Source of the DNA: Eubacteriales bacterium
GTDB taxonomy: Bacteria; Bacillota; Clostridia; Oscillospirales; CAG-272
NCBI GenBank assembly: GCA_045536065.1
Contig: JAZSMV010000008.1
Location: 1-57,912, forward strand
Length of the DNA: 57,912 nt
Direction: 5' to 3'
Made by a program: the position numbers and the translations under genes. Numbering within the stretch: position 1 is the stretch's first letter; each line of letters begins with the position of its first letter. The notes beneath the pieces were generated by a model. The model made no database searches and was not told the origin of the DNA. It saw only the letters and a list, made by a program, of their open reading frames with translations. Of this stretch, positions 4,463 through 55,400 are shown piece by piece.

Positions 4463-5170
4463 TCAGCCTCTGTACTGTCCTTTGGTAAGAAATTCGGGTG
4501 CGATCTCGGGATTAAATCCCTCGGGCTTTTTAATTTCAAGCATATTTATCTTCATACCCTGCTCCGAGAAGCTTGTCTCATACTCGGTCATAATATTCCC
4601 CTCGTTCCACTCCGAATTATGAAGATCACGGGTGAGAGCGGTGGGGGTAAGACCCACAGCCTCGATCTCCTCAAGGGAGAAATCAAAAAGTCCTACGTTG
4701 TCGGTCTTGAAGCGGAGAACTCCGCCGTCACGAAGAAGATTCATATACATCGCAAGATATCTGCGATGGGTAAGGCGGCGCTTTGCATAGCCCTTCTTCG
4801 ACCATGGGTCGGAAAAGTTAAGGAATATTGCGTCTACGCTGCCGGGCGCAAAAATGTGCATAAGATTATCTGCAGTTTCGATAAGGAAGCGAAGATTTTT
4901 AAGTTCACCGAACTCGCCCGACTTTGCCTTCTCAACGCAAAGCACAACGCAGTCGGTAACTCTCTCCATCGCAAAATATGCGGTGTCTCTATGACGTTCT
5001 GCCATAGCGCAGGCAAATCCGCCCTTGCCGGCCCCGATCTCAAGGTAAACCTTTCCGCCCGCCATACCAATAGCAGAAGCAGGATCGTTCATCACCTCAT
5101 TCGCTTCAAAAAGATACTCTCCGCAGGCCGCAAGGCGCTCCTCGGAGTGCTTTTTCTTTCTCATTCTCAT
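4463..5170 (-). CDS. trmB: tRNA (guanine46-N7)-methyltransferase
   Basis: Contains LEIGAGKGGF (SAM motif), FLNFSDPWSKKGYAKRRL and FKTDN, which are characteristic TrmB blocks. Confidence 0.85.
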   Translation of the reverse strand: MRMRKKKHSEERLAACGEYLFEANEVMNDPASAIGMAGGKVYLEIGAGKGGFACAMAERHRDTAYFAMERVTDCVVLCVEKAKSGEFGELKNLRFLIETADNLMHIFAPGSVDAIFLNFSDPWSKKGYAKRRLTHRRYLAMYMNLLRDGGVLRFKTDNVGLFDFSLEEIEAVGLTPTALTRDLHNSEWNEGNIMTEYETSFSEQGMKINMLEIKKPEGFNPEIAPEFLTKGQYRG

Positions 5171-5247
5171 ATCTGATCAACTCACTTTTTATGTCAAAAT
5201 GTGTGATATTTGCAAAGTTTGCTTTGCATTTATGCTATTTTATACTA

Positions 5248-6952: not shown

Positions 6953-7031
6953 GAGTCAAGTGTCCCAAAAGCTGTTGCAAGAAAATTGTTTCCGTCACTT
7001 GGCACAAGGAAAATTGTTTACAAAGCGAATA

Positions 7032-7060
7032 TTGACAACCGGTGTAAAATTTTATATAAT
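7032..7060 (+). promoter_or_regulatory. Promoter for the HAD hydrolase/lipoprotein pair
   Basis: TTGACA (7032..7037), a 17-nt spacer, then TATAAT (7055..7060). It is divergent from the prfC promoter. Confidence 0.55.
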
Positions 7061-51726: not shown

Positions 51727-52128
51727 TTAAGCCTTCCCTGTTGGGGAAGGGGGACCGCCCGAGGCGGTGGATGAGGTTCGTTCTATATTCTTTATTATAT
51801 TAGAACAAACGCCATCAAAATTTGTTTTTATATCGTAATTTGTATACCGCAACACAGTATACCCCTGACTGCGAAGAAAACTATCTCTTTGCTTATCGTA
51901 CAATTTGCTGTCGGGTTCATAATGCTGTGATCCGTCGAGCTCAATAATCAATCTTGCAGACGGTATGCAAAAATCCACGATGTAATTGTCAATTACTTTC
52001 TGACGATTTACAACAACATCAAGTTTCTTAAGAAAATCATACCAAAGATGCTTTTCTTCCTTGGTCATATTTTTGCGCAAGGATTGTGCGTATTCTTTTA
52101 GCTCCGGATTGTTGTTGAATGTGCTCAT
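51727..52128 (-). CDS. DUF559 domain protein (Vsr-like / PD-(D/E)xK endonuclease fold)
   Basis: Contains LRKNMTKEEKHLWYDFL, VDFCIPSARLIIELDGSQH and VLRYTNYDI, the DUF559 pattern. The SD (GAGGTG) lies inside the inner TIR box. The last ~15 codons (SSTASGGPPSPTGKA) are read-through into the left arm. Confidence 0.8.
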   Translation of the reverse strand: MSTFNNNPELKEYAQSLRKNMTKEEKHLWYDFLKKLDVVVNRQKVIDNYIVDFCIPSARLIIELDGSQHYEPDSKLYDKQRDSFLRSQGYTVLRYTNYDIKTNFDGVCSNIIKNIERTSSTASGGPPSPTGKA

Positions 52129-52183
52129 TATCTCACCTCATCCGTCGGCTACGCCGCCACCTTCCCCAACAGGGAAGGCTGAA
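51729..52183 (-). mobile_element. DUF559 cassette 1: nuclease gene bounded by ~48-bp hairpin-containing terminal inverted repeats (family A arms)
   Basis: The left arm (51729..51777) is AAGCCTTCCCTGTTGGGGAAGG-GGGACCGCCCGAGGCGGT-GGATGAGGT. The reverse complement of the right arm (52134..52183) is TTCAGCCTTCCCTGTTGGGGAAGG-TGGCGGCGTAGCCGAC-GGATGAGGTG. The outer 21 nt and inner 9 nt are identical, and the middle hairpin differs. Confidence 0.65.
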
Positions 52184-52184
52184 T

Positions 52185-52793
52185 CTATCTCACCGTGTAG
52201 GTGGTTTTTTCAATAAGGAAATCGTTTGTTCCGTCGTTTGTAGCGGTGATTGTGATGGAATTGTCACCAAAATCAACATCGAGAGTAACTTTTACTCGTC
52301 CATCGGTGATGGTATAGGTGTAAACGGAGGTACCCTCAGCAGGATCAGAGATAGAAAACGGAGGGGTATCACCATTCTTATATTCAAGATTTATACTTTT
52401 CGCAAAGCAATTCTCAAAAGTCGTCTTTTTAGTTTCGTTGTTATTGCCACTGGTATTCACCGCATATCTAAAGCATTCGATGGCGTTTTCGGCAATGTTG
52501 GTGGCTTCGATCATATCGATCGTTTCGCCGTGGGTTTTGCTGTCTACGGCAACAACGCCGATAGATACCGCTGTTACGATTACGATAATCGCAAGCGCCA
52601 TGGCAAGCTCTACAATAGTAAAGCCTCGGCGGGAGCCTTTTTCATCAAGCCTTCCCCTTGAGGGGAAGGTGGCGGACGAAGTCCGACGAATGAGGTGTTT
52701 TTCATTAATAGTGTTTTCCACCTCATCAGTCACCTTTGGTGACAGCTTCCCCTCAAGGGGAAGCCTGAATATATCTTTAAAATTCATTTTCAT
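52185..52793 (-). CDS. Minor (pseudo)pilin with an abnormally long ~55-60-aa leader
   Basis: Prepilin motif RRG|FTIVELAMALAIIVIVTAV (Glu+5). Possible in-frame starts are GTG 52811, ATG 52793 (TGAGGT SD) and ATG 52787. The leader-coding part contains the gene-less inverted-repeat element. Confidence 0.6.
   Translation of the reverse strand: MKMNFKDIFRLPLEGKLSPKVTDEVENTINEKHLIRRTSSATFPSRGRLDEKGSRRGFTIVELAMALAIIVIVTAVSIGVVAVDSKTHGETIDMIEATNIAENAIECFRYAVNTSGNNNETKKTTFENCFAKSINLEYKNGDTPPFSISDPAEGTSVYTYTITDGRVKVTLDVDFGDNSITITATNDGTNDFLIEKTTYTVR
52647..52769. mobile_element. Gene-less (MITE/REPIN-like) doublet of family A arms
   Basis: The left arm (52647..52697) is CAAGCCTTCCCCTTGAGGGGAAGG-TGGCGGACGAAGTCCGAC-GAATGAGGTG. 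A 21-bp core follows (TTTTTCATTAATAGTGTTTTC). The reverse complement of the right arm (52719..52769) is TTCAGGCTTCCCCTTGAGGGGAAGC-TGTCACCAAAGGTGAC-TGATGAGGTG. Confidence 0.65.
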
Positions 52794-52803
52794 ATCAGTT
52801 ACC

Positions 52804-53343
52804 TCATTCACCTGCGTAGGGGTTTACACAGAAGGTGTAGGTGTAATTCGTTTTATCAACAGAGTAGTTAATGGTGCAATAGTAAACTGCATCTAGATCT
52901 TGACGAACAGTATCAATCAATTCTCCATTTGCAAGATCAAGATTGGAATGATATGTTTCGTTGGTAATGGGGCTATAAAATGCAAAAGCAAATGTAATGG
53001 ATTCTATATGTTCCAATTCCATGGTGACTTTACTATCTTCGCCATTATATGCAACAATAAATCCGTTATTAAACATTACAAATTTATCACCAAAGGAAAG
53101 TTTACTTACACTTTCAAGATAGGCATCTGTAAGTCCGGAATTACTCTCAACAAATCCCTCGATGATTGATTCGGCGGCGGTGACGTCCTGCATGGCTTCA
53201 AATCTTTCGTTGCTGATTCCCTGTGCGCCGTGCATCATTGAGCTGAATGATACGACCATCGTTGCCGCAATGACAAGGACTGCGAGAACTATAATAAGCT
53301 CGGCAAGGGTTGCGCCCTTTCTGCTATTATTCTTTTTGTTCAT
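52804..53343 (-). CDS. Minor (pseudo)pilin
   Basis: Starts MNKKNNSRKG|ATLAELIIVLAVLVIAATMVV (Glu+5). ATG 53343 has GGAGG upstream. The track extension to 53535 runs through a REP-like hairpin and is rejected. Confidence 0.7.
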   Translation of the reverse strand: MNKKNNSRKGATLAELIIVLAVLVIAATMVVSFSSMMHGAQGISNERFEAMQDVTAAESIIEGFVESNSGLTDAYLESVSKLSFGDKFVMFNNGFIVAYNGEDSKVTMELEHIESITFAFAFYSPITNETYHSNLDLANGELIDTVRQDLDAVYYCTINYSVDKTNYTYTFCVNPYAGE

Positions 53344-53444
53344 AGGCTGCCTCCTTTTTAAAAAATGGGATTTTTTAAGATCTTTTAGAGCTTTAAAATA
53401 TTTTAATAAAAAATTTTCGCACATGTAAAATAAGGAAAAGGATT

Positions 53445-53468
53445 CGTAGGGGCGAGGGTTGCTCGTCC
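53445..53468 (+). repeat. REP-like hairpin CGTAGGGGCGAG-ggtt-GCTCGTCC, followed by T7
   Basis: Shares CGTAGGGGCGA...TCGTCC with 55377..55400. On the plus strand it looks like an intrinsic terminator facing against the operon. Confidence 0.5.
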
Positions 53469-53708: not shown

Positions 53709-54050
53709 TTAGTTGCTTGCAGCGGGATTAAGAACTGTGTAATTCTCAGGAGTAGTAGGCTGAGTGGTGGGCTGGTCTTCATCAATATCAACGATATTAT
53801 TACCAGTTACAGTGTAGTAGTGACCATCAACAACAATGAAACCATTAAGGCCGGTACCAAGTGTAGAAGGATCTGCATCAATCATAAGTTCGGTGAGAAT
53901 GTTTCTAGCTTCCTGGTCACGAGAGGACTCGTTAGCCTGTTCGATAATGGAACCAAAGGTAGGAATAAGAACTGCGGAAAGAATTGCAATAACTGCGATA
54001 ACGATTACGAGCTCAACGATAGTAAAGCCCTTCTTGTTGTTTCTCTTCAT
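53709..54050 (-). CDS. Major type IV pilin (prepilin with N-terminal cleavage/methylation motif)
   Basis: Starts MKRNNKKG|FTIVELVIVIAVIAILSAVLIP (Glu+5). At 113 aa it is the first gene of the operon. Confidence 0.85.
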   Translation of the reverse strand: MKRNNKKGFTIVELVIVIAVIAILSAVLIPTFGSIIEQANESSRDQEARNILTELMIDADPSTLGTGLNGFIVVDGHYYTVTGNNIVDIDEDQPTTQPTTPENYTVLNPAASN

Positions 54051-54222: not shown

Positions 54223-54251
54223 AGTATACAGTTTTTCGCCGTTTTTGTCAA
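54223..54251 (-). promoter_or_regulatory. Promoter of the pilus operon
   Basis: On the minus strand: TTGACA (54251..54246), a 17-nt spacer, then TATACT (54228..54223). The leader is about 165 nt. Confidence 0.5.
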
Positions 54252-54333
54252 TATATATTAAATATTTTATTTCTTAAAAAATATTAACTCGATTTTAATT
54301 AACAGGACTGTTAATTAAAAATGGAGTAAGAGT

Positions 54334-54848
54334 AAGGCTCCCTTGTGTAAAGGGAGCTCCCGCATAGCGGGTGAGGGATTGTCAATCCTCCTTGTTTAAA
54401 TTAATTCTTGATTTTGTTATCTTGTCAATATAACAACAAACACCGTCAAAATTTTTATTCAATTCATAATTCAATATTCTAATCACTTCAATACCAAACT
54501 TCTCAAGATATTCAGTTCTTTCAGCGTCGTACTGCTTTCCTTCCGGTGTATAATGCTCCGATCCGTCAAGCTCTATAACCAGCTTTGCCTCTGAAGAATA
54601 AAAATCAGCAATGTATCTTCCAAGAACCTTTTGCCGTGAAAAGCGAATTGGATATGAACGCAGAAAATCATACCAAAGGTGCTTTTCTTCTTTGGTCATG
54701 TTTTTTCTCAATTCTTTTGCAAAAGGAACCAAATTCTTATTGTGTTTTCTTTCCATACAATCCACCTTTCGATTCGCTGCTTAACACAAGGGAGCCAACA
54801 ATCCCTCAGTCGCCTTTGGCGCCAGCTCCCTTTACACAAGGGAGCCTA
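54334..54848 (-). mobile_element. DUF559 cassette 2: nuclease gene bounded by ~48-bp hairpin-containing terminal inverted repeats (family B arms)
   Basis: The left arm (54334..54381) is AAGGCTCCCTTGTGTAAAGGGAGC-TCCCGCATAGCGGGT-GAGGGATTG. The reverse complement of the right arm (54799..54848) is TAGGCTCCCTTGTGTAAAGGGAGC-TGGCGCCAAAGGCGACT-GAGGGATTG. An extra half-site ACACAAGGGAGCC lies at 54785..54797. Confidence 0.65.
54382..54756 (-). CDS. DUF559 domain protein (Vsr-like endonuclease fold), paralog of 51727..52128
   Basis: Contains the same LRKNMTKEEKHLWYDFL block, then ADFYSSEAKLVIELDGSEH and VIRILNYEL. I prefer ATG 54756 over the GTG at 54765. Confidence 0.8.
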   Translation of the reverse strand: MERKHNKNLVPFAKELRKNMTKEEKHLWYDFLRSYPIRFSRQKVLGRYIADFYSSEAKLVIELDGSEHYTPEGKQYDAERTEYLEKFGIEVIRILNYELNKNFDGVCCYIDKITKSRINLNKED

Positions 54849-55349
54849 GAAGCCGCTGATCGGCAGATCCTCGTTATCCTCGCCTTTGGTGATTTTACGA
54901 ATCTCGACGTAGTAGGACATATTCTCGTTTACGGTGACGAGGGCTCGGTCGCCAACACGCTTGCCCATAAGGGCGCTACCCAGGGGGGATTCCTTGCTGA
55001 TGAAGCCCTTCAGGGCGTTCTGACGAAGGGTGGTGACTATCTGTATCTCCTTCTCTGTCTTCATACGCTCGTTATAGATCAGTACACGGTCAAAGAGGGC
55101 TACCGCATCGGGTGAGTCCTTGATGTCGATAACCTTGGCTGTGCGGATCATTGCCTCAAGGTAACGGATGCGGCTCTCGTTTTTGCGCTTTAAGTACTTC
55201 GCCTCCTTGTATTCGGCATTTTCCGACAGGTCGCCAAGCTCTCTGGTGCGCTTCAGCTCAGCGCCAAGCTCGGGCGCTAAGATGACCTTGCGATAGCGGA
55301 TCTCCTCCTCCATCTTTTTTATATCTACTTCTGTAAGCTCATCGTACAT
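54846..55349 (-). CDS. greA: Transcription elongation factor GreA
   Basis: Contains MYDELTEVDIKKMEEEIRYRK...GDLSENAEYKEAK...SPLGSALMGKRVGD. ATG 55349 has GAGGT upstream. The track start at 55391 runs into a REP hairpin. Confidence 0.88.
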   Translation of the reverse strand: MYDELTEVDIKKMEEEIRYRKVILAPELGAELKRTRELGDLSENAEYKEAKYLKRKNESRIRYLEAMIRTAKVIDIKDSPDAVALFDRVLIYNERMKTEKEIQIVTTLRQNALKGFISKESPLGSALMGKRVGDRALVTVNENMSYYVEIRKITKGEDNEDLPISGF

Positions 55350-55376
55350 AGTTTTACCTCGGTGTGAAATAAAAAT

Positions 55377-55400
55377 CGTAGGGGCGACCATTGGTCGTCC
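55377..55400 (+). repeat. REP-like hairpin CGTAGGGGCGACC-att-GGTCGTCC
   Basis: Second copy of the CGTAGGGGCGA...TCGTCC hairpin, located between the ackA terminator and the greA start. Confidence 0.5.

Follow-up and report, generated by a model that had tools for sequence, protein, structure and literature searches.

Here we report the analysis of a small nuclease cassette at positions 54334-54848 of a 57,912-nt stretch of DNA from an Eubacteriales bacterium (contig JAZSMV010000008.1; the whole stretch is called the window below). This unit, cassette 2, consists of a gene of the DUF559 family enclosed by two inverted, structured arms, and is butted against the stop codon of greA; a related unit, cassette 1, and an inverted pair of arms lacking a gene lie close by. 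On balance, we favour the view that cassette 2 belongs to a widespread family of selfish nuclease-plus-arms cassettes in gut and rumen Clostridia. At the level of sequence comparison, five points can be regarded as established: gene and arms form a coherent unit, both the protein and the hairpins are under selection, nuclease and arms are coupled, the site behind greA turns over between strains, and nuclease-less copies of the arms exist. The family is apparently new to the literature, and full-text searches found no link of DUF559 to inverted repeats, miniature inverted-repeat transposable elements (MITEs) or repetitive extragenic palindromes (REPs); DUF559 is mentioned in passing alongside the EDxHD family (PMC9403480).

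Anatomy of cassette 2

The arms of cassette 2 are units of 48-50 nt, each built from two hairpins and a box, with ends AAGSC...GSCTT and terminal inverted repeats (Table 1). The 50-nt upstream arm contains hairpin 1 (GCTCCCTT-gtgta-AAGGGAGC), hairpin 2 (GGCGCC-aaa-GGCGAC) and the box TGAGGGATTG, and the downstream arm begins right after the stop codon of the nuclease gene with CAATCCCTC, followed by CCCGC-tat-GCGGG and GCTCCCTT-tacac-AAGGGAGC. The outer hairpin GGCTCCCTTGTGTAAAGGGAGC has exactly two sites in the 57.9-kb window, 54336-54357 (+) and 54825-54846 (-), with none expected from 100 shuffles. A repeat search returned the inverted arms as 54335-54363 and 54819-54847 (29 nt, 93% complementary) together with an inner box pair at 54367-54382 and 54798-54813, and a covariance model of the three-part unit scored both arms at 65-69 bits (E ~1e-19), setting their limits at 54334-54381 (+) and 54799-54848 (-). 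On the minus strand the end of greA reads ...GGC TTC TAG, the TAG overlapping the start of the 50-nt unit. Just inside the upstream arm lies a truncated second unit copy (GGCTCCCTTGTGT), the 5' half of a tandem unit, and the ATG-proximal decayed unit retains just half a hairpin and the Shine-Dalgarno-like GGTGGATTGT (54757-54766), a box remnant that is the predicted Shine-Dalgarno region of the nuclease gene.

A preliminary description of this DNA had proposed two inverted arms around a DUF559 gene, an overlap of the outer right arm with the greA TAG, an extra half-site inside that arm, and a three-part plan common to both cassettes, all of which are present where it placed them. The TAG occupies 54846-54848, the half-site at 54785-54797 is real and represents a truncated tandem unit of which sister strains carry full copies at the same position, and one covariance model detects both cassettes as well as the arm-only pair. 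With this model the window holds six units only, those of the two cassettes and of the arm-only pair, all inside 3.2 kb. The two nucleases, judged by eye to be about 45% identical with a common LRKNMTKEEKHLWYDFL block, are 46% identical by alignment, with the block in both.

The cassette-2 protein matches PF04480 at 100.6 bits (cut-off 20.6; E 5.6e-29), and at E <= 0.01 a Pfam scan returned DUF559, MTES_1575 and DUF2726 only. A profile of the family matches PDB 3HRL, a solved DUF559 protein, with E 1e-17 and the catalytic domain of I-Bth0305I with E 0.026. The AlphaFold2 model (predicted local distance difference test score 89.7) gave Foldseek template-modelling (TM) scores of 0.82 to 3HRL and 0.78-0.82 to 3R3P, the I-Bth0305I catalytic domain; the match to 1VSR (Vsr) was weak (E 0.28, TM 0.44). 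Two short N-terminal helices precede the core of the model, and Pfam finds no further domain. Residues D51, E62, D64, H68 and D77 are invariant in alignment A1, and 165 of 167 proteins retain the ExDGxxH and DF motifs. The ratio of nonsynonymous to synonymous substitution rates (dN/dS) of the nuclease, 0.06-0.16, marks a maintained gene under purifying selection.

A recurrent gene-plus-arms plan

A protein search gave at least 7,997 matches at E <= 1e-5, with identities of at least 66% among the best 120 listed, the named matches among these 120 being Clostridia or Ruminococcaceae metagenome-assembled genomes (MAGs). A one-genome-per-species scan yielded 80 loci from Clostridia, Oscillospiraceae, Acutalibacteraceae and similar MAGs, a few of them binned as Anaerolineaceae, and a metagenome scan seeded with cassette-1-type proteins yielded 80 more. 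Repeat and arm counts were taken on loci (identified by L numbers) rather than on whole genomes, using a covariance model built from a 45-unit alignment, with an arm called at E < 1e-5.

Among 89 related DUF559 genes in 82 loci of Clostridia MAGs, 65 have an upstream arm, 70 a downstream arm and 60 both. Reading the flanks of related loci recovered a recurrent upstream flank, AAGCCTCCCTTGTGTAAAGGGAGG-TGGCAC...GTGAC-GGAGGGATTGTaATG, and a recurrent downstream flank, CAATCCCTCAGTCAGC...GCTGACAGCTCCCTTTACACAAGGGAGCCTT. In most relatives the box GGAGGGATTGT stands immediately 5' of the ATG, so that the box of the upstream unit is their Shine-Dalgarno sequence, and it is usually the downstream unit that supplies the final codons (...KQSLSQLR) and the stop. 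This fusion of the gene to its arms at both ends, with the ribosome-binding site in the box and the C-terminus and stop in the arm, holds for proteins down to ~60% identity. The anatomy is that of a ~120-residue Vsr-fold (DUF559) gene with two family-specific inverted arms, each of two hairpins and a box, and the same arms were found at more than 100 unrelated places.

The hairpins themselves covary. In the 45-unit alignment 92% of cells are paired, and both partners have changed in 10 of the 15 pairs, all six of hairpin 2 among them; none of 500 shuffles scored as high and no slid register came close. The closing pair of hairpin 1 is G.T in 39 of the 45 units. This pattern indicates that the hairpins are under selection, hairpin 2 being variable and preserved by compensatory changes. 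No Rfam family was found for the arms or the conserved flanks: the window gave only tRNAs at the gathering threshold, and five loci gave nothing at E <= 0.1.

Arm families follow nuclease clades. Cassette-1-type loci combine TTCCCC or TTCTCC hairpins and boxes of the GATGAGG type, and the two arms of any one cassette match each other. Among 167 distinct genes, cassette-2-like nucleases are accompanied by CTCCCTT/GAGGGATT arms in 74 cases and by TTCCCC arms in five, whereas cassette-1-like nucleases have 0 and 46, respectively (Fisher p = 6e-29 over the table, relatedness ignored); the five exceptions are borderline clade assignments. The co-variation of clade and arm family that had been anticipated for these elements is thus seen across the 167 loci (74:5 vs 0:46), and nuclease and arms are coupled in a family-specific manner.

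A subset of species shares further sequence outside the arms. A conserved ~125-nt segment (CTTTTTTATGTTCATCTATGCCTTGTCAATTTTCCTGACAAGCACTGC...AAAACTGTCCTTTAGAG) follows the downstream arm in L011, L014, L019, L020, L025, L027, L028 and L036, and AAATTCCAATTTATCGAGAAA stands ~25-45 nt before the upstream arm in L013, L016, L020, L025, L028, L036 and L038. The outer flanks around this subset differ, and Rfam has no match for the conserved sequences; the segment and AAATTCCAATTTATCGAGAAA either belong to a mobile unit of larger size or mark an element preferred as a target.

Turnover at the greA site

The neighbours of cassette 2 are greA and pilin genes. An exact-protein look-up found no record matching the window's own GreA; the allele P0122 is 99% identical to it, and strains with identical P0122 differ right after the greA stop. 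Cassette 2 follows greA, which ends in TAG, in the window and in L093 and L095. In L091, L092 and L096 greA ends in TAA, and the DUF559 cassette behind it is of the TTCCCC / GATGAGGTG family; in L094 it again ends in TAA and is followed by a PF05635 gene between its own GAGTGCAGAG... / ...CTCTGCAC repeats. All P0122 alleles then rejoin a common host flank, AATTAAAATCGAGTTAATA..., which leads into the pilin promoter. Strains with the GreA allele P0134 carry other DUF559 cassettes, or a ~250-nt element with TGTCATCCCGAGCG ends, at the greA site, and have DUF559 or GIY-YIG genes in the ackA-greA spacer. The spacer of relatives holds units a few bases past the ackA terminator, with units of different families at the same point. 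L191 (GreA 88%, pilin synteny retained) is nearly empty, having greA's own terminator and a solo hairpin-1 relic. No units were detected by the covariance model in the loci searched for greA relatives of 87% identity with a different downstream gene. The number of full tandem units upstream of cassette 2 is 1, 2 (L093), 3 (L001) or 4 (L099) according to strain. The arm-only pair in a prepilin leader of the window is kept by some strains, whereas others lack it or have another sequence in its place.

Divergence of the nuclease is likewise out of step with its surroundings. Between the window and both L005 and L099, the synonymous divergence (dS) is 2.8-2.9 for the nuclease, 0.7-0.9 for greA and 0.45-0.5 for ackA; between L005 and L099 it is 0.2 for the nuclease and 0.63 for greA. 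The history of the nuclease is, as judged by these values, decoupled from that of greA and ackA, and the strain comparison shows mobility and turnover at one site between near-identical strains. The preliminary description had taken the cassette to be mobile rather than a housekeeping repair gene, and the unlike occupants beside identical GreA proteins, together with the decoupled dS, bear this out. The alternative that it raised, namely that the arms are a greA terminator or a pilin operator, does not hold for the loci compared; L191 has greA's own terminator in place of a cassette.

For 50 of 54 cassettes with a left neighbour, the closest open reading frame (ORF) of 100 residues or more runs in the same direction and stops before the cassette, in 14 cases within 20 nt of it, and the right neighbour is co-oriented in about half, these counts being based on ORFs rather than curated genes. 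The insertion of cassette 2 exactly at a gene end, which had been remarked on at the outset, is therefore part of a wider tendency. No sigma-70-like promoter site was found between greA and the cassette-2 nuclease gene, and hairpin 1 of the downstream arm scores terminator-like in each cassette (in cassette 2 on the gene strand, site 54357-54337). Without a promoter of its own, and positioned just 3' of a co-oriented host gene, the cassette is probably transcribed by read-through from that gene, here greA, while standing in for the host terminator; the outer hairpin of its 3' arm resembles a terminator. PADLOC detected no defence system, returning weak partial hits only (DpdF, homing endonuclease, methyl-directed restriction endonuclease).

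Other small genes with repeats occur at these sites. A gene for PF05635 ('23S rRNA intervening sequence protein') lies at 2835-3560 of L094, bracketed by inverted arrays of heptamer-like repeats (GAGTGCAGAG / CTCTGCACTC), and another at 5025-5372 of L005; remnants of PF05635-type repeats are found at 2005-2130 of L192, upstream of a DUF559 cassette. In L194 (280-1230) a 95-residue GIY-YIG gene sits in the ackA-greA spacer with ~250-nt elements with TGTCATCCCGAGCG...CGCTCGGGATGACA ends on both sides, and a lone element of this kind lies downstream of greA in L194 and L196. The GIY-YIG gene with its GTCATCCCGAGCG-type repeats is a third type of small gene plus own repeats at the same sites.

Arm copies away from nuclease genes

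Of 269 units in nuclease-centred loci, 133 lie away from any DUF559 gene. They occur solo, in tandem arrays and as 38 convergent pairs with spacers of 0-320 nt, and stretches of unrelated DNA, 260-320 nt long, lie between the arms of some pairs. The family of an arm-only unit agrees with that of the cassette in its locus in 62% of cases, compared with 43 +/- 6% under locus permutation. Hairpin 1 also occurs in 90 predicted viral contigs, and the 40 of these that were searched with the covariance model hold 95 full units. Under our explanation the dispersed solo, tandem and paired arms would look like non-autonomous derivatives. Two origins were considered and set aside. That of arm-only pairs by internal deletion of complete cassettes was examined with tblastn of 167 nucleases against 31 arm-only spacers, in which the matches were arm-encoded peptides only, and a phage origin was rejected when a relative proved to be encoded in just 2 of 50,697 phage records.

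The arm-only pair of the window lies in frame in the leader of a prepilin-like ORF (52185-52811, minus strand), which reads MKMNFKDIF[RLPLEGKLSPKVTDEVENTINEKHLIRRTSSATFPSRGRL]DEKGSRRG and then FTIVEL. Among orthologues of this leader, that of L099 is short and normal, and L001, L005, L091 and L094 retain the arm-only pair; L093, whose cassette-2 nuclease is identical to that of the window, has a 27-nt GTAG-type hairpin in frame instead of the pair. The cleaved prepilin leader seems to tolerate repeat insertions.

The arms also appear to be targets in their turn. An insert of ~72-90 nt, bounded by TAGCGAAGCGGC...GCAGCGAG and containing a long hairpin, lies inside hairpin 1 of both arm families in several independent arms (L001 ~5100-5190, L005 ~6990-7060, L091 3018-3092, L099 ~2330-2420 and L192 ~680-830) and is polymorphic between the window and L001. 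It seems to be a second-tier element targeting arms.

Proposed mechanism and its alternatives

We propose that the nuclease recognises hairpin 1 and the box of its own arm family, likely extruded in single-stranded or cruciform DNA. Hairpin 1 is closed by a conserved G.T pair, which would be a lesion of the type nicked by Vsr and is a putative cut site. The break left by a cut at hairpin 1, or at a hairpin-like target such as a terminator, could then be mended with an existing element as template, in a process akin to homing or gene conversion. In this way whole cassettes would be moved or replaced, and arm copies lacking the nuclease (solo, in tandem or as inverted pairs) would be multiplied in trans, much as REP and REPIN copies are thought to depend on the REP-associated tyrosine transposase (RAYT).

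A number of observations weigh against this proposal. In the predicted model the protein is a bare catalytic domain plus ~30 residues, with no NUMOD/helix-turn-helix (HTH) region, and a PD-(D/E)XK nuclease alone cannot join strands. That the nuclease acts on the arms at all, whether by cleavage, binding or transposition, we infer from linkage, and the co-variation statistic is not adjusted for shared ancestry. Non-Watson-Crick pairs in arm-only units comprise 18 G.T and no A.C in unit orientation, on either strand, which are small counts from near-perfect stems and too sparse to tell hairpins in DNA from hairpins in RNA. A clean empty site was not found, L103-L108 being without pilin synteny and L191 the nearest approach, and no target-site duplication was seen next to greA, in the ackA-greA spacer, in the prepilin leader or at 60 cassette borders. 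Paralogues inside one MAG are 47-90% identical and thus do not point to recent bursts within a genome. The arm-only spacers contain no trace of a nuclease gene. Full units are present in 40 predicted viral contigs, and 816 kb of viral loci contain no DUF559 ORF, so that arms can persist, and perhaps move, without a linked nuclease.

In a different arrangement, the arms would be an independent REP- or MITE-like family moved by another enzyme encoded elsewhere or by recombination alone, and DUF559 would be cargo or a hitch-hiker, with a role for example in addiction, defence or repair. The excess of units without a nuclease gene (the 133 in nuclease-centred loci and the 95 in viral contigs) over those with one, the arm pairs that enclose unrelated DNA, and the other small genes with their own repeats at like sites (PF05635 in L094, GIY-YIG in L194) would all be expected of it. 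We nevertheless consider it unlikely: gene and arms are fused at both ends over a wide range of protein identity, the arm family follows the nuclease clade, purifying selection on the nuclease demands a function that travels with the arms, and the gene tables of related loci list no transposase gene next to the cassettes examined. Alternatively, the module could work at the level of RNA, the arms being transcript hairpins that stabilise or terminate 3' ends and, by pairing of 5' and 3' arms, control translation of the nuclease, with DUF559 binding or cutting RNA hairpins and the repeats spreading as useful or neutral punctuation, as proposed for REPs. The box forms the Shine-Dalgarno region and its complement lies just past the stop codon, so that 5'-3' pairing could hide the Shine-Dalgarno sequence; hairpin 1 of the downstream arm is terminator-like; the co-orientation with the upstream gene is strongly biased; and Foldseek also places the model by RAP-domain RNA-binding mitoribosome proteins (TMq 0.66-0.72), and the Vsr-like FASTKD4 is described as an RNA regulator (PMC11879112). 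Such a module would, however, leave unexplained the exchange of whole cassettes at one site in near-identical strains and the decoupled dS. Both arms have the same orientation from outside to inside and lie on opposite strands, so that one arm alone is a sense-strand copy of the unit; the catalytic residues of a DNA nuclease are conserved, and the excess of G.T over A.C in arm-only units hints weakly at hairpins in DNA. The odds of this RNA-level reading seem to us rather poor.

A further account would be that of an ordinary resident gene for a Vsr-type repair nuclease with a housekeeping role, passed on vertically together with the greA-pilus locus, with the repeats serving as local regulatory or terminator signals. 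In its favour, the order greA-DUF559-pilins-DUF559 is kept in a relative whose nuclease is 75% identical, and one source labels a relative 'very-short-patch-repair endonuclease'. This reading is contradicted by the site polymorphism. Unrelated occupants are found in strains with identical GreA, the dS of the nuclease is 3-6 times that of the flanks, the same arms recur at so many unrelated places, the Pfam scan gave no match to the Vsr family (PF03852), and neither the neighbours in the window nor the gene tables of related loci include a cytosine-5 methyltransferase (dcm). We regard it as very improbable.

If the selfish-cassette explanation of cassette 2 holds, DUF559, which is among the largest bacterial protein families without a function, would gain a testable role tied to a cognate structured repeat, and a second natural nuclease-repeat partnership would stand beside REP/RAYT. 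It would also explain many repeat-derived tails and inserts of predicted Clostridia proteins (...QSLSQLR, PLHKGA, RLPLEGKLSPKVTDEV). More speculatively, DUF559 proteins may both make and maintain a whole class of GC-rich, palindromic two-hairpin repeats, forming a second, independently evolved partnership of the REP/RAYT kind, based on a Vsr-fold nuclease acting on extruded hairpins with a G.T pair, in gut Clostridia and possibly in the ycjD repeats of E. coli, and might, together with the PF05635 and GIY-YIG cassettes, belong to general 'small gene plus cognate repeat' parasites at gene ends; we offer this wider idea tentatively. On a practical level, the cassettes create strain-level variation at gene ends, and even in a prepilin leader, which bears on typing, on breaks in metagenome assemblies and on the annotation of gut Firmicutes.

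Relation to known systems

The closest analogy is with the REP/REPIN-RAYT systems (Bertels and Rainey 2011, PMC3116915; PMC3337134), the cassette being comparable to one in which a Vsr-fold nuclease replaces the HUH transposase. In both, the gene of a small DNA-cutting enzyme lies between inverted short hairpin repeats, the repeat is dispersed without the gene as singlets, clusters and inverted doublets, repeats stand at gene 3' ends, and in a given genome each repeat family is served by a single, diverged enzyme copy instead of a set of identical ones. However, the RAYT enzyme is an HUH tyrosine (Y1) transposase, whereas that of the cassette is a Vsr-fold DUF559 protein of PD-(D/E)XK type, and the cassette unit is longer than a REP (~50 nt, two hairpins and a box), carries no GTAG/CGTC tag and has the ribosome-binding site and C-terminus of the gene fused to it. 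The hosts are Clostridia, and the cassettes are exchanged between lineages, unlike RAYT systems, which are described as mostly vertical (10.1101/2022.05.22.493013).

Site-specific replacement is also reminiscent of free-standing homing endonuclease genes, and Vsr-fold homing endonucleases are known. I-Bth0305I, of the EDxHD family (Taylor et al. 2011, PMC3239194), shares the catalytic fold, and its selfishness is of the kind inferred from site-specific presence, absence and replacement and from a history decoupled from the flanks. It has an N-terminal NUMOD/HTH region and resides in a phage-gene group I intron or intein; in contrast, the cassette protein has 124 residues and is encoded in an intergenic, free-standing element with structured inverted arms, and Rfam identified no intron family in the window or in related loci. 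To E. coli Vsr there is a distant likeness of fold, and the G.T pair of hairpin 1, if extruded, would resemble the T:G substrate of that enzyme; the cassette differs in lacking the PF03852 match and the adjacent dcm, and in having a polymorphic site and repeat arms.

E. coli YcjD (DUF559, NCBIfam NF007294), whose relation to Vsr has been noted (PMC1189080), belongs to the same family (E 1e-17 to 1e-23, below the equivalog cut-off). The start of ycjD lies within GAATGAGGTG, which is the box of the arm-only pair in the window and also one arm of a perfect 17-bp hairpin, and its last codons enter a GC-rich palindrome; a related copy ~180 nt downstream belongs to a repeat of which E. coli genomes have 16 copies in the median. 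This repeat is presumably boxC. The arms of ycjD differ in that they form no clean inverted pair of two-hairpin units, and YcjD and the repeat are linked by adjacency only. In E. coli K-12 (NC_000913.3, 1351040-1351830; L109) the 3' end of ycjD is partly duplicated farther downstream, and in several phylogroups ycjD sits where others have the eefRABCD operon (PMC12817139).

Among mobile elements, IS200/IS605 and MITEs resemble the cassette in that the gene of an enzyme of ~120-150 residues is accompanied by subterminal hairpins, the target is not evidently duplicated, and short non-autonomous forms exist. IS200/IS605 elements encode the HUH transposase TnpA, and their hairpins lie on one strand rather than at inverted ends, unlike those of the cassette. 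Classical MITEs have DDE transposase partners and target duplications, neither of which was found at the cassette junctions and neighbours compared. An integron gene cassette with attC sites was also considered and rejected, the repeats being inverted on both sides and the gene tables containing no integrase.

Further features of the window

The features of the region are collected in Table 1.

Table 1. Positions of the two cassettes, the arm-only pair and adjoining features in the window.
Feature	Position	Strand	Basis
Cassette-1 DUF559 nuclease gene, 133 aa, C-terminus encoded in downstream arm	51727..52128	-	PF04480 E 5e-32; alignment
Cassette-1 downstream arm unit	51729..51778	+	Covariance model 35.5 bits
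Cassette-1 upstream arm unit, TTCCCC family; box GGATGAGGTG is its Shine-Dalgarno region	52134..52181	-	Covariance model 47.8 bits
MITE-like arm-only inverted pair, cassette-1 arm family, 21-nt spacer	52647..52767	52647-52697 (+), 52719-52767 (-)	Covariance model 48.8, 46.5 bits
Pilin promoter-like site TTGACA-17-TATACT	54251-54223	-	Promoter-like site scan, strain comparison
Host flank common to all alleles of the site, with palindrome TTTTAATTAACAG-tc-CTGTTAATTAAAA (54293-54320)	54223..54320	-	Repeat search, strain comparison
Complete arm unit downstream of cassette-2 gene, inverted relative to upstream unit	54334..54381	+	Covariance model 64.9 bits
Cassette-2 DUF559 / Vsr-fold nuclease gene, 124 aa from ATG	54382..54756	-	PF04480 E 5.6e-29
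Truncated second tandem unit (half-site 54785-54797) and decayed unit	54757..54798	-	Repeat search, sequence reading
Complete arm unit upstream of cassette-2 nuclease gene	54799..54848	-	Covariance model 69.2 bits, E 2e-20; inverted-repeat search
greA (167 aa); TAG stop 54846-54848 inside outer end of upstream arm	54846..55349	-	Pfam GreA_GreB_N and GreA_GreB

A second, unrelated hairpin repeat, tcGTAGGGGCGAnnnnnnnTCGTCC, occurs at 53444-53468 and 55376-55400 of the window and resembles classical GTAG-tagged REPs. One of the copies lies in the ackA-greA spacer, where L092, L096 and L097 have a TTCCCC-type unit instead.

The first pilin gene (53709-54050, minus strand, in the window; 3240-3578 in L001) shows 55% identity between the two strains, with a dN/dS of ~0.55, while the GreA, AckA and DUF559 proteins are 98-99% identical in the same comparison, which suggests either allelic replacement of the major pilin or diversifying selection.

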